Shown here: piece after piece, positions 15,306 through 44,458 of the stretch | Layout: every line of letters begins with the position of its first letter | Numbering within the stretch: the stretch's first letter is position 1 | From: a virus | Lineage: Duplodnaviria > Caudoviricetes | Length of the DNA: 64,000 nucleotides | IMG/VR virus record: IMGVR_UViG_3300028797_000005 | Coordinates: 1-64,000 of that record | Direction: 5' to 3' (one strand) | The notes under the pieces: model-generated | The model's input: only the letters and a program-made list of their open reading frames with translations | Told to the model about the DNA's origin: nothing | The model's database searches: none | Made by a program: the position numbers and the translations under genes

Positions 15306-15386
15306 ATATCTATGCTAAGAGAAGTTCCTCTCTCAACCTTACATATATAGTATATCATAATTCTGAAATATTTTCAAATTTTATTA

Positions 15387-40120: not shown

Positions 40121-41545
40121 TTATCCTTTCTTCGTTAATACCCAGTCCGCAGTTTCATTACTTACGGTGCCTTCGCCGCCTACGACGTAAGCTTTCTTTG
40201 GGCTTAAAGTAGTAACATATCCTTGAGCTTCTCCCCAAGCGCCTGGATCGGCAAGGAGAAGTGGATGTCTTCCTAAGTTGCAAGAGCAAAGACCATCTGG
40301 GAAGCTCTTACCAGTAGCAATTACAATAGTATCAGCTTTAGCAAAGAACCTCTTAGCGATAGCAGCTGAAGTACTGTAACGATTATTACCATAGCAACGA
40401 GTGGTCTTACCATATTTCTTTAACTCTTCCTCAACCTTATCAGTAACTGCCGCGCTTCCACCGATAATGTAGAAAGTTCTATCCATCTTACCATAGTAAA
40501 TTTCCATTTCACTTAAGAATCTTGCCTGGTCTGGTAAAAGGCTTTTGCCTACGAGAAGAATTGGAATCTGTAAAGTAGATGCGCAGAGAGCATCTGGAAA
40601 ACTTTGTCCAGAACAAACTGCAATAGCTTGTCCAATCTCTACGTCCTTAAAAATCTCAAGGTTTGTATAGTAACGATTCTTGCCAGCATAGCGTTTTACC
40701 TTATAAGCAGAAAGTTTTTCTTCCATCGCTTTTGGAATTACGCCTTCACCGCCGCAGATAAATACTTGAGCATCTTCTTCAAGTCTACCTTTTAAATAAG
40801 TAGCTACTGAGTTCATAACTGATTCAGTATTATTGGTAAGAAGAAGTGGCCCGCCAACTCTTGACACGAGATAGCCAGCTGAAAGAGCATCGGCATAATT
40901 TTCACCACTTGCAATAACTGCCGCGGAGAACTTGCCTGGATATGTAATATTAGCTAAAGCCTTAGCTGTTTCATATCTATTATTACCCCAGACTCTTTCA
41001 AACCCCATAACTGGTTTTGGCTCCGGGTTAGGCGGATTAAGTCTAAGATTTACTTGGTTAGCTATATAGTCAAACTTACTTCCTAGATATGGGCCTGGGC
41101 AAAGAGTTGCCGCGAACCAGCAATGCTTTGTTAAATTGCCGGAAGTATCACCAGTATAATTGAGTTTTGCAATACCATTGCGCTGACAAATATCAACTAC
41201 AAGATCAATGCACTTTGCAATTACCTTATCGGCGACATGCCAATTTCCGCCAATCTCATCATTGGCAAGTTCAATAGTAACCGCTCTACGGTCATTATCG
41301 CCATTTGATGACGCCCAAGAGCGATCTTTTTCTTCAACATACATTCCAACTTGGAGGTCATTGTCAATAGCATAATTGGCTGATGCCTCTCTATAACCAT
41401 CAGAGAAAACTCTGCCAACTGTTTCTACTGATAGATCACCAGCCATATGATGGATAGTAATAGTATCAATTTTATGGCCAAGCCGGCTTGATTGATTAGG
41501 GCTGATTCTTGTATAAGTAACCAAAGAACTATTGCTCATAGCCAT
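40121..41545 (-). CDS. endolysin: N-acetylmuramoyl-L-alanine amidase (Amidase_2) + three CW_binding_2 repeats
   Basis: ITIHHMAG, ASANY, SWAS, TIE, H....T.CPG; three R..G.NRY.T...G..(F/Y).D.L; GGAGG before ATG 41545. Confidence 0.9.
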   Translation of the reverse strand: MAMSNSSLVTYTRISPNQSSRLGHKIDTITIHHMAGDLSVETVGRVFSDGYREASANYAIDNDLQVGMYVEEKDRSWASSNGDNDRRAVTIELANDEIGGNWHVADKVIAKCIDLVVDICQRNGIAKLNYTGDTSGNLTKHCWFAATLCPGPYLGSKFDYIANQVNLRLNPPNPEPKPVMGFERVWGNNRYETAKALANITYPGKFSAAVIASGENYADALSAGYLVSRVGGPLLLTNNTESVMNSVATYLKGRLEEDAQVFICGGEGVIPKAMEEKLSAYKVKRYAGKNRYYTNLEIFKDVEIGQAIAVCSGQSFPDALCASTLQIPILLVGKSLLPDQARFLSEMEIYYGKMDRTFYIIGGSAAVTDKVEEELKKYGKTTRCYGNNRYSTSAAIAKRFFAKADTIVIATGKSFPDGLCSCNLGRHPLLLADPGAWGEAQGYVTTLSPKKAYVVGGEGTVSNETADWVLTKKG

Positions 41546-41663
41546 CGTCCTCCCCTTTACCGTTTGAAAGTTCTTCAACAGTTGATTGAACCGCACATTC
41601 ACTTTCTGGGATTTCTACATCTCCTATTTGGGAGATTTTTTGTTGTTTAAATTCAGTTAACAT
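41529..41663 (-). CDS. 44-aa acidic peptide overlapping the amidase start
   Basis: read manually; ends EELSNGKGEDDGYEQ. Confidence 0.5.
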   Translation of the reverse strand: MLTEFKQQKISQIGDVEIPESECAVQSTVEELSNGKGEDDGYEQ

Positions 41664-41665
41664 TG

Positions 41666-42442
41666 TTATGCTCCTAATTTACTTAAGGTAGTTATACGGT
41701 AGGCAACAATTATATCTGACATATCGGTTCCAGAATTTTGAACTAAATTTATATAACGTGTCCTTGCCGCCATATCTGGATTCTTGTAAGTAAAACACAA
41801 GTGACAATAAGTATATCCACCTGTTACTGCAGATCTAATGTCTTGAAATCTATGAGATTCTCTAGTTCCACCAGCAGTAGCTGATACATTAACTCCTCTA
41901 TATCCATTCGCATTGGTTGGAAAACGAACTGCAATTTCAATTAAACAAACTGTTTTAGCCGGAATGCTCATTTCTTTTTTAGACTGCCAGGAGGTCCCAG
42001 TAGTTAAAGTAATAGTTTCATCTCTAACTTCACTTGGACATTTTACTCCACCAATTGTATCTCCGTCTGGATCAAGTATTGTACCCTCATTAGTAAATTG
42101 CCATCGGTAAAGAGAAGAATCATCTACATCTGTCCAATTTTGACATCCTGTCGCAACATAAACATTTGTATCTGCTGTTATATGTGTTGCTTCATTAGTT
42201 GCACTTAAATTTTTTAATGTATTATATTTTGCAGCAGATTCTCCTCCACCAATAACAACTGGTCCAAGCCCTGTAATTATAACTTTTCCAGCATAGCTAG
42301 TACTACTTGGAATTAGATTAATTTGCGGGGGCTCTTTTGCCAATGGATAAGCTGGCTCAGTTCCCATATCATCAGAACGACTATTATTAATAACTGCGTG
42401 TTTTCTAATATATGCTAATATCTGATCTAAACTAACAGCCAT
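41666..42442 (-). CDS. hypothetical virion/fibre-like protein
   Basis: ORF track; beta-rich C-terminus. Confidence 0.6.
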   Translation of the reverse strand: MAVSLDQILAYIRKHAVINNSRSDDMGTEPAYPLAKEPPQINLIPSSTSYAGKVIITGLGPVVIGGGESAAKYNTLKNLSATNEATHITADTNVYVATGCQNWTDVDDSSLYRWQFTNEGTILDPDGDTIGGVKCPSEVRDETITLTTGTSWQSKKEMSIPAKTVCLIEIAVRFPTNANGYRGVNVSATAGGTRESHRFQDIRSAVTGGYTYCHLCFTYKNPDMAARTRYINLVQNSGTDMSDIIVAYRITTLSKLGA

Positions 42443-42443
42443 A

Positions 42444-43385
42444 TCACAACACCTTATTTAAGAACTTCTGCATAGCTAATGCCGATTCTTCACCGAATAT
42501 TCCGTCAATAACAATATTATATCCCTGTTTCTCTCTCAGCCATCTTTGCCATGCTCTAACAGTATTTTCATCAACATAACCATTCGTGGGAGCTGCAATG
42601 CCTTTCTTAATCAGATAATTTTGAAATACTTTAATCATCTGACTGCCGCCACCGTCAGTATCATATGAAAGAATGGCAGGTGCATATCTCTTAATTGAAC
42701 TTAACTGGTCACTAATAATACCATCTTGAGTAGTTCCAAGCCATTTCTGCATGGCCGCAATACTTAATTTACCAAATTCGCCATCTTCATCTAACTTAGC
42801 TTTATCTTCATAATTGATAGGATTATAAATAAAACCTTGGAAAGTGTACTGGCCGAAATGATAAGGCGGCTTATGAGTGCTTAACCAGAATCTAGTACTG
42901 TAATAAGCTGAGTTAGAACAAGTGATGCTACCATCGGCATTAATCTTTTCAACAATAGCTACATGGCCCATGCCGTCACTATCATCGTAAGCATTTCCTC
43001 TTCTCCAACAAATGACAGCTCCAAGTTTAGGAGTCTTACCACGCTTATAGCCGTCATTAGTATTATACCATCTTTCAGCATCGGCGCGGCTTAGATTATG
43101 CTTTGCTCCAAGTAATTCTCTCCAGCGGCCCCAGGCATAGCCTACACAGTTAGGAAGGCAACTTTTCCCTTCAATTTTAATGCAATAATTGTAGCCGCCA
43201 GCTGTATAATGGATCCAGTTTTTATCAGTCGTACTAGGTGCCTTTAATCTAGGGACCCAGATCGCTCCAATGCCTTCAGGAAGTTCTTCTCCGTCTTGTA
43301 CTTCAATGCCAGCATCAAGACAAGCCTGATAGAAATCATCTTCTATCATTTCTTCCAAAATTTGGCTATTATTATCTTTTTCCAT
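42444..43385 (-). CDS. CHAP-domain peptidoglycan hydrolase with PG-binding repeats
   Basis: NCVGYAWGR, PKLGAVICW, GHVAIVE; DG.FG..S..AMQK.L; RBS AAGGAGG before ATG 43385. Confidence 0.9.
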   Translation of the reverse strand: MEKDNNSQILEEMIEDDFYQACLDAGIEVQDGEELPEGIGAIWVPRLKAPSTTDKNWIHYTAGGYNYCIKIEGKSCLPNCVGYAWGRWRELLGAKHNLSRADAERWYNTNDGYKRGKTPKLGAVICWRRGNAYDDSDGMGHVAIVEKINADGSITCSNSAYYSTRFWLSTHKPPYHFGQYTFQGFIYNPINYEDKAKLDEDGEFGKLSIAAMQKWLGTTQDGIISDQLSSIKRYAPAILSYDTDGGGSQMIKVFQNYLIKKGIAAPTNGYVDENTVRAWQRWLREKQGYNIVIDGIFGEESALAMQKFLNKVL

Positions 43386-43443
43386 AACTTCCTCCTTAAT
43401 TTTTATCATTATCAAGTAACCTTTCCTTTATATTTATATAATA

Positions 43444-43476
43444 AAAAAAGGTTGGCTTTTTATCAAATAGCCAACC
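43444..43476 (-). terminator. intrinsic terminator closing the large ncRNA unit
   Basis: GGTTGGCT-loop-AGCCAACC-TTTTTTT. Confidence 0.85.
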
Positions 43477-43589
43477 CTATATGTTAAGAGGTCATAATAA
43501 AGGGGGTGACCTCATAGTGGGCAGTATGATAAGGAGGAAACTGCCCCTTATTCAACCCACTAAGGTAGGGTTGCACCAGAAAGGTTTAG

Positions 43590-44200
43590 TACGTATCATT
43601 GGGGCTTCCCCCTACAACCAATCAAAACTTGATTTAATCAATCACGGTGGAGATAAGTCTGAGCAGAAGGGAGCTACCCTCAAGCTTCTTACCCCGGTCT
43701 CTCGACCTAGTACACCGACAGGATTGGAACCTGCTACTTTCACCCGCTTTCAGAAACCTTCATGTTGTTTAAACATACAACTTTTATCTTGTATGTTGCG
43801 GCTGTTGGGCTACTCGTACCTTCCTTAGTGTCATAGCCGGATTTCACGGCTTCTCCGCAAATTCGATTCTTTGGTATTCCCTTAGGGGCCTTACTTGGTT
43901 ACCAGTCAAGCGGCATAAGGGTTATTCTCCACAGGAGCGTCTATTACTCGAACCACTTCGGAAGTATTTTAATCTTATTAAGTTGGTGCGCTGTTACTAT
44001 ACTTTGAGGTTTGACTCTCTTCAGGACTAAAGGCTTATTCACCTAATCCAGCATCTCACTTAAAGAACTATCGTTCTAAAAGGATTAGCACATAGCCACC
44101 CCGGCAGGTTGCGCCTTCTACACCGGGATAATGATACGGGAATTTTAGTTCAGCCGAAGCCTTAACAGCTGCGCCACGGGAAGGCAATTCCATGCAGCCA
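43590..44200 (-). ncRNA. ROOL-like large ornate ncRNA
   Basis: no credible ORF; segments TAATAGACGCTCCTGTGGAGAATAACC, CGAATTTG, AAGGTACGAGTAGCCCAA, CTGAAAGCGGGTGAAA..AGGTTCCAATCCT, GTAAG..GGTAGCTCC..GCTCAGACTTATC, GTGATTGA occur in the order I recall for ROOL; long-range helix CGTATCATT/AATGATACG; ends approximate. Confidence 0.75.
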
Positions 44201-44253
44201 TCGGTCGAGGTTGAAAGGAAAGGAAAGAAACATATCCTCGACCTTACTTAAAT

Positions 44254-44458
44254 ATTATATCAAAAATTTCAGAAACTTGCAAATTTTCGATTCCGAATTT
44301 TTCGGAAAAATTTTATCTGACTAATCTCTCAACCTTACATAAATATTATATCAAAAATTTCAAAATTAATCAAATTTTCATTTATATCTTTCAGTAAGGA
44401 TTTCGTTCCTCTCTCGACCTTACTTATATAGTATATCAAAAATCTCATTTCTTTTCAA
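44254..44458 (-). promoter_or_regulatory. three tandem sigmaA-type promoters
   Basis: -35/N17/-10 at 44254-44282, 44345-44373, 44430-44458, each followed by GTAAGGTYGAG. Confidence 0.85.

Follow-up and report, generated by a model that had tools for sequence, protein, structure and literature searches.

The DNA analysed here (hereafter the window) comprises the first 64 kb of the 123,246-bp IMG/VR phage record IMGVR_UViG_3300028797_000005, which has direct terminal repeats and turns up in bovine gut samples. The minus strand of the window encodes a ROOL RNA at positions 43584-44151, which matches the Rfam model RF03087 over its full length (1-574) with 273.3 bits against a gathering score of 99.1. 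ROOL is a large phage RNA whose octameric nanocage structure is known but whose function is not, and to our knowledge very little is known about its expression and processing. We examined four hairpins with C/U-rich loops that flank this RNA and that may act on the ribosome-binding sites (RBSs) of lysis genes encoded downstream.

The order of elements on the minus strand is three tandem sigma-70 promoters, hairpin H5, ROOL, hairpins H1, H2 and H3, and an intrinsic terminator. Directly downstream of this cassette lies a gene for a 313-aa cell-wall hydrolase with CHAP and PG_binding_1 domains (42444-43385, minus strand), referred to below as the CHAP lysin. It is followed on the same strand by a 258-aa gene without assigned function (41666-42442), whose start overlaps the stop of the lysin gene, by a gene for an endolysin carrying an Amidase_2 domain and three CWB2 repeats (40121-41539), which is the third gene downstream, and then by a gene for a 3D-domain protein.

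Hairpins flanking the ROOL RNA

The four hairpins are perfect, and direct reading and an exhaustive census of perfect hairpins in the genome both place them on the minus strand, at exactly the coordinates that a preliminary description of the locus had given. H5 (44203-44243) has a stem of 8 bp and a C/U-rich loop of 25 nt. H1 (43553-43573) has 6 bp and the 9-nt loop UACCUUAGU, H2 (43519-43546) has 7 bp and the 14-nt loop UUCCUCCUUAUCAU, which is of anti-Shine-Dalgarno (anti-SD) type, and H3 (43488-43513) has 7 bp and the 12-nt loop CCCCCUUUAUUA. Folded alone, each adopts the structure given here, with z-scores from -1.9 to -3.6. When the hairpins are folded in context, the stems of H5 and H3 form with probabilities of 0.97-0.98 (0.98 for H5) and their loops are 0.9-1.0 unpaired; the H5 loop is unpaired at 0.91 and that of H3, with its CCCCC, completely (1.0). 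H1 and H2 each form at only about 0.44, because an alternative fold pairs the anti-SD sequence of H2 with an SD-like spacer, AAUAAGGGG. The loops are thus anti-SD-like and well presented, as had been proposed, fully in H3 and H5 and about half the time in H2.

The base composition of the loops is unusual. Taken together, the four loops contain 48 pyrimidines in 60 nt and only 2 G (binomial probability 1.6e-6). The census of the 123-kb genome yielded 280 perfect hairpins, corresponding to 372 strand-loops of at least 9 nt. Only seven of these strand-loops (1.9%) are at least 80% pyrimidine, and three of the seven are H5, H2 and H3 read on the transcribed strand; the probability that at least three of five flank hairpins would be pyrimidine-rich by chance is 6.5e-5. 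Therefore, we conclude that the pattern of pyrimidine-rich loops at the ROOL flanks is beyond chance.

Upstream of H5, a 52-nt direct repeat (D1) is present in three copies, each of which contains a sigma-70 promoter matching the consensus at 10 of 12 positions and having an extended -10 element. A promoter scan identified these as P1 (TTGAAA-17-TG-TATACT, 44430-44458), P2 (TTGATT-17-TG-TATAAT, 44345-44373) and P3 (TTGCAA-17-TG-TATAAT, 44254-44282), all on the minus strand. The -10 element of P3 ends at 44254 and its start is predicted from spacing to lie near 44248-44246; the stem of H5 therefore begins 4-5 nt past the predicted start. Transcripts from P1 would also open with a hairpin (44393-44424, minus strand), found in the census, which has 7 bp and an 18-nt purine-rich loop. 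Folding places a second leader hairpin between H5 and ROOL (44164-44202, minus strand). At the other end of the unit, the intrinsic terminator (43443-43476, minus strand) consists of an 8-bp stem (43476-43450) with an 11-nt loop, followed by seven U residues (43449-43443). Its pair probability is 0.97, the hairpin has an energy of -14.8 kcal/mol (z = -3.55), and it acts as a terminator in the minus orientation only. Overlapping it on the same strand is a candidate promoter, TTGATA-17-TATTAT (43438-43466), which is recognized only by a 10/12 match to the consensus; the late promoters of this phage may be of a different type. This candidate lies past the hairpins but ahead of the CHAP lysin RBS, and it would start a lysin mRNA free of the hairpin arms.

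All four hairpins lie outside the RF03087 match and in one unit with the promoters and the terminator, which bears out their assignment to the ROOL transcription unit. They thus represent leader and trailer of a ROOL cassette that stands by itself ahead of the lysis module, and the flanks of this cassette appear to be tailored to that neighborhood.

Two observations concern the control elements themselves. P1-P3 belong to an extended promoter family, AAAATTTGAAA-N-TGATATA(A/C)TATATATGTAAG, with nine copies in the genome (44262-44438, 21567, 16824, 15357, 13662 and 6415 on the minus strand of the window; genome position 112079 on the plus strand), which precede ROOL, tRNA arrays and small genes with purine-rich leaders. 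An initial transcribed sequence, GTAAGGTTGAGAGAGGAAC, is common to ROOL P1 and the tRNA promoter at 15357, and the same promoter with its discriminator is found upstream of ROOL in otherwise unrelated rumen phages (L003, L016, L019, L020, L024, L044, L050 and L074). Additionally, the region of the terminator's 5' arm has a second copy a short way downstream, the two forming a 26-nt direct repeat with 73% identity (43409-43434 and 43460-43485). The downstream copy holds a AAAGGAAAGG tract, and in read-through RNA this tract could form pairs with the terminator's 3' arm and U tract as well.

Loop partners among ribosome-binding sites

According to the preliminary description, the loops are complementary to RBS variants and should be compared with phage leaders. 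We called 153 genes in the genome by a crude procedure and scored each loop with RNAduplex against every translation-initiation region (TIR), taken from -25 to +3. The top partner of the H2 loop among the 153 TIRs is the RBS of the very next gene, that of the CHAP lysin (UAAGGAGGAAG, 43388-43398, minus strand), with an energy of -15.2 kcal/mol over 11 bp (10 Watson-Crick pairs and one GU pair). The 10-mer UAAGGAGGAA occurs in the whole genome only in this RBS and in the antisense of H2, and the lysin leader (AUGAU ... AAGGAGGAA) can pair with all 14 nt of the H2 loop around a 7-nt bulge. The H3 loop has its top partner in the RBS of the amidase endolysin and would pair there with GGUAAAGGGG (41552-41561, minus strand) over 10 bp at -14.7 kcal/mol (eight Watson-Crick and two GU pairs); UAAAGGGG is present in just one TIR. 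When the anti-SD sequence of 16S rRNA was used as a control, the CHAP lysin ranked 50th, the 258-aa gene 118th and the amidase endolysin 41st of the 153.

The H5 loop best fits the AAAGGAAAGG leaders of several small genes, which are partly under the same promoter family. It matches 13-17 nt in the leaders of genes starting at genome positions 122185, 121228, 13619 and 2413, the first two of which lie beyond the window, and in 246 of 250 trials its top five partners outscored the ones chosen by shuffled loops. A AAAGGAAAGG tract is also located in the 5' untranslated region of the CHAP lysin (43420-43429, minus strand), where it is the exact complement of CCUUUCCUUU in the H5 loop. The loops thus have concrete partners among phage RBSs, with net energies after opening costs between about -10 and -13 kcal/mol (about -11 for H2, about -10 for H3, and -12.6 kcal/mol).

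The unusual feature of these matches is the position of the partner genes. Across the census, the best partner is among the next three genes of the same strand for 7 of 372 loops, which is close to the chance expectation of 2% (3 of 153 genes), and two of these seven loops are H2 and H3. Shuffled versions of the loops select the three genes in 27 of 400 trials for H2 (6.8%) and in 17 of 400 for H3 (4.3%). The positional coincidence of the H2 and H3 partners has a p-value of about 0.001-0.01, judged after the fact. The strength of pairing is another matter: composition-matched shuffles reach the same best energy in 83 of 250 trials for H2 and 68 of 250 for H3. The energies are ordinary for C/U-rich loops, and therefore only the identity of the partner genes is unusual. 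The comparison with phage RBSs thus upheld the expected complementarity in part, in that two lysin RBSs rank first of 153, while the best energies do not stand out.

One more feature of this region touches the RBS of the amidase endolysin. A 44-aa acidic open reading frame (ORF) with a good RBS (41529-41663, minus strand) begins where the 258-aa gene stops and runs, in another frame, past the start of the amidase gene, and ribosomes translating it could change how accessible the amidase RBS is.

Other ROOL loci, relatives and RNA processing

In order to place the hairpins within the ROOL family, we fetched 80 ROOL loci from IMG/VR and determined the boundaries of 19 distinct full-length ones with cmscan. 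None of these 19 other loci has a hairpin with a pyrimidine-rich loop within 160 nt of either end of ROOL. Their 3' flanks consist mostly of tRNA genes that abut ROOL, and in the others of an ORF or of a hairpin with a terminator; promoters are found in the corresponding flank positions in other loci too. The hairpins are therefore not part of ROOL itself, and the idea that such arms are a general feature of ROOL loci finds no support in this survey. Two of the fetched loci carry a hairpin of another kind, located 46 nt past ROOL on the minus strand in L019 and 126 nt past ROOL in L060. It has a conserved 21-nt loop, GGCGAG(A/T)GC(C/G)(G/T)CGTTCCAGAA, on stems that fully covary (CGACCT versus GTCAGCT), and it is followed by AACACGGGGCTG just ahead of a tRNA gene; no Rfam family reaches its gathering score there.

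The preliminary description had also compared the hairpins with the small RNAs RsaE and RNAIII. ROOL is the only Rfam family at gathering score in 43400-44300, the leader having been scanned at the gathering threshold only. A permissive scan of the 3' trailer (43420-43600) gave sub-threshold noise, and no small RNA family passed: the RsaE/RoxS model (RF01820), with a gathering score of 79, reached 17.9 bits (E = 0.61), and the L20 leader (RF00558), with a cut-off of 58.7, reached 22.7 bits. Homology to RsaE or RNAIII thus falls away, and the resemblance to these RNAs is one of design and not of membership. We also considered and rejected three structural roles for the flanks. A tRNA-like remnant is contradicted by the absence of a tRNA call and by the wrong geometry, a processing stalk formed between leader and trailer would rely on a duplex that is matched by 115 of 200 shuffles, and the loops have only short matches to the ROOL body, in segments that are already paired.

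Searches for relatives of the locus returned little. The locus had no match to GenBank phages in blastn. The closest homologues of the lysin (P0002 and P0003) are 77-80% identical, and the lysin-anchored loci from IMG/VR and JGI metagenomes (L002 and L083-L087) contain neither ROOL nor an intergenic module; in other phages the homologous lysin gene directly follows a holin-like gene. RNase H as a query for relatives retrieved nothing, and the helicase query retrieved only a contig that was too short. Patterns derived from lineage-specific ROOL sequence, from the H2...H3 loops and from the H5 stem had zero or only chance matches in viral and genome contigs, and the neighboring proteins showed no synteny with the 80 ROOL loci. 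The phage helicase is only 27% identical to the helicases of SPO1-like phages. The CWB2 repeats of the endolysin suggest a Clostridia-type Firmicute host with an S-layer or CWB2 ligands.

Sequencing runs provide some information on the ends of the RNA. Their coverage was taken from assembled contigs and not from raw reads; neither set of hairpins was covered by an RNA contig, which is uninformative in data of this kind. An identical contig from a bovine metatranscriptome run has its end at 44171, inside the leader. A run from another study, X6, whose kind is unrecorded, holds a 571-nt contig of a relative with 94% identity that spans only 43601-44167; both 44171 and 44167 lie in the 3' arm of the second leader hairpin. 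The X6 contig covers ROOL almost exactly and nothing else, pointing to a related phage that makes a separate RNA in large amounts. Runs X3 and X6 together contain ROOL relatives with identities of 85-94%. A DNA run from another study, which contains a near-identical strain, continues across both flanks with two differences in each. The ROOL RNA of L. salivarius is as abundant as 16S rRNA (PMC12286853); its ends were mapped by circular rapid amplification of cDNA ends, and its promoter is located 225-450 nt upstream of the mature 5' end (PMC5643018). The contig ends and the processing in L. salivarius give a weak hint that mature ROOL, the abundant species, has lost its flanks by cleavage. It had been left open whether the hairpins are attached to an abundant RNA or processed from it, and this hint favors the latter.

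A putative mask on lysin translation, its alternatives and known counterparts

The location of the hairpins between strong promoters and lysis genes, together with the identity of the loop partners, leads us to a tentative interpretation, to which we assign a probability of about 0.4: the anti-SD arms may silence lysin translation on RNA that originates from the strong ROOL promoters, or in trans. If the arms have mRNA targets, these are likely to be the lysis genes that the phage carries downstream, possibly reached in cis, and not a wide range of mRNAs. The stems would shield the 5' end of the transcript and provide structure and termination at its 3' end. The loops, above all those of H2 and H3, would serve as anti-SD sequences, one per downstream lysin RBS, with H2 directed at the CHAP lysin RBS about 130 nt away and H3 at that of the Amidase_2-CWB2 endolysin about 2 kb away. 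RNA from the three strong, host-type ROOL promoters that leaks past the terminator would carry the anti-SD arms in a 1:1 ratio with their targets, and because such RNA would hold its own anti-SD arms, we propose that it could not be translated into lysin. A lysin mRNA begun downstream of the hairpins would be free of arms and would be translated. The trailer, if freed by 3' processing of ROOL, could add repression in trans. The overall role of such an arrangement would be to insulate the lysis genes from the ROOL promoters, and it would tie the time of lysis concretely to ROOL expression.

A number of observations weigh against this interpretation. All of its support comes from a single genome, and the test of partner identity was devised after the data had been seen. 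The frequency with which shuffled loops equal the pairing energies, given above, belongs here as well, and a wider TIR window drops the ranks of the lysin partners to 2-3. The H1 loop pairs only weakly with the RBS of the middle, 258-aa gene (UAAGGUG, 42456-42450, minus strand), which ranks 9th among its partners, and the top partners of H5 are not lysins. A good terminator stands between the arms and their targets, and the neighboring SD-like tract sequesters the anti-SD of H2 about half the time. Nested folding of the read-through RNA leaves the lysin SD unpaired with H2; the contact would be a loop-to-strand pseudoknot, which lies outside nested folding. Finally, endolysins are usually harmless without a holin, and the need for silencing is an assumption.

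The main alternative, a distinct possibility in our judgement, is that these are ordinary leader and trailer hairpins with functions in stability, processing or termination, and that the RBS matches are coincidental. The 5' stem-loop would then guard against 5'-dependent decay, and the three 3' hairpins and the terminator would block 3' exonucleases or mark processing sites. The flanks would be trimmed and degraded, and the loops would be purine-poor for some other reason, e.g. to avoid the binding of ribosomes or RNases to a very abundant transcript. The start of H5 only 4-5 nt after the predicted P3 start is what such a role would call for, and transcripts from P1 open with a hairpin as well, in that case one with a purine-rich loop. 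Short 5'-proximal hairpins with unrelated loops are also found in other ROOL loci (L016 and L020). The ends of the two contigs (44171 and 43601-44167), set beside a DNA run that crosses both flanks, are a weak hint in the same direction, as is the processing of L. salivarius ROOL from a promoter 225-450 nt upstream (PMC5643018), and shuffled loops pair with equal energies. However, stabilizing and terminator hairpins normally have small loops, while the loops here are 9-25 nt long and 80% pyrimidine, which is very unusual in this genome, and a purely structural role leaves it to coincidence that two adjacent loops have two adjacent lysin RBSs as their best partners. Should the arms have no regulatory role, the locus would offer no more than an uncommon leader and trailer, known from one uncultivated phage.

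The preliminary description had favored a panel of RBS-capturing loops of the RsaE/RNAIII type, attached to or cut from ROOL. Acting in trans as seeds, such loops would capture many phage or host mRNAs, for instance in the shut-off of early genes with AAAGGAAAGG leaders. We regard this as unlikely. It would account for the H2 loop binding the average phage RBS better than shuffled loops do (only 2 of 250 reach its value), for the comparable result with the top five partners of H5 (4 of 250), and for the 13-17 nt matches of H5 to several leaders, including those of genes under the same promoter family; the trailer also finishes in a terminator, as a 3'-derived small RNA would. However, the shuffle test shows that purine-rich TIRs draw any C/U-rich loop, the comparison with RsaE remained at 17.9 of the 79 bits required and no other small RNA family exceeded its threshold, and both the accumulation of the arms and the host targets are assumptions.

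A broader version of lysin silencing, which we consider quite improbable, would make the ROOL precursor a multi-arm riboregulator that holds silent the lysins and, via H5, early genes with AAAGGAAAGG leaders, until late transcription outruns the arms. Leader and trailer would be made in rRNA-like amounts from the three early promoters, and an RNA threshold timer would tie lysis to ROOL synthesis.

Another reading, in our view very unlikely, takes the trailer as an attenuator, in which the 5' arms of H1 and of the terminator are able to pair with each other (UGGUGCAACCCUA with UAGGGUUGGCUA). Opening of H1 by some factor would then allow transcription to continue into the lysis genes. Folded as an antiterminator, the RNA is within 3.2 kcal/mol of the terminator conformer, and this antiterminator fold has the lowest energy as long as the terminator's 3' arm is still missing from the nascent transcript. 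However, 57 of 1000 shuffles and 28 of 1232 genomic windows match the alternative helix (-14.8 kcal/mol), so that the complementarity barely stands out, and the system would have no known effector, the L20 leader match being far below its cut-off (22.7 versus 58.7 bits). It is extremely improbable that the hairpins are plus-strand features, either SD-like loops of a plus-strand gene or inverted repeats bound by a protein at the DNA level: the loops do read as SD-like tracts on that strand and a 115-aa ORF (43481-43828) is present, but the minus strand alone carries ROOL, its promoters and the terminator, the ORF belongs to no Pfam family, lies antisense to the 3' part of ROOL and the trailer hairpins and is judged spurious, and the stems share no sequence and therefore form no common operator.

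The proposed silencing of the lysins can be compared with several known systems. Like other ROOL loci, the cassette has a full-length ROOL on the same strand, and its extended -10 promoters are of the same kind as those in other rumen phages. Other ROOL loci are located in tRNA arrays or abut ORFs, whereas this one has three promoters, a 96-nt leader, three trailer hairpins, its own terminator and lysis genes downstream. H5 is similar to the protective stem-loops at the 5' ends of Gram-positive transcripts in being a stable hairpin about 5 nt from the predicted 5' end; however, its 25-nt polypyrimidine loop is far bigger than stability needs. RsaE/RoxS (RF01820) and RNAIII also combine hairpins carrying C/U-rich, SD-complementary loops with a following intrinsic terminator. 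This resemblance is functional only, since there is no homology of sequence or structure, and the arms described here are phage-encoded, co-transcribed with a giant RNA and without a demonstrated promoter of their own.

Two phage systems act on, or are proposed to act on, lysis genes. In Pseudomonas phage PAK_P4, the antisense RNA PAK_P4as15 has been proposed to repress endolysin translation and delay lysis (PMC12197685). It is a long cis-antisense RNA from the opposite strand, whereas the arms considered here are short loop seeds on the same strand. In phage T4, gene e, soc and I-TevI are subject to translational masking in early read-through transcripts (PMC3014915). As with T4 gene e, a lysis gene here lies downstream of strong early-type promoters, an SD-complementary sequence is located upstream on the same strand, and a candidate promoter past the putative mask but ahead of the RBS would yield dedicated transcripts that are not masked. 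The T4 mask is a local hairpin that includes both the SD and the AUG, whereas here the anti-SD is displayed in the loop of a separate hairpin, and the arms, known from sequence alone, are positioned 130 nt to 2 kb upstream, beyond a terminator, one per gene. If the proposed silencing is correct, the locus would offer, in a phage of Gram-positive type, a parallel to the mechanism of T4 gene e in which modular loop seeds provide one arm for each gene.

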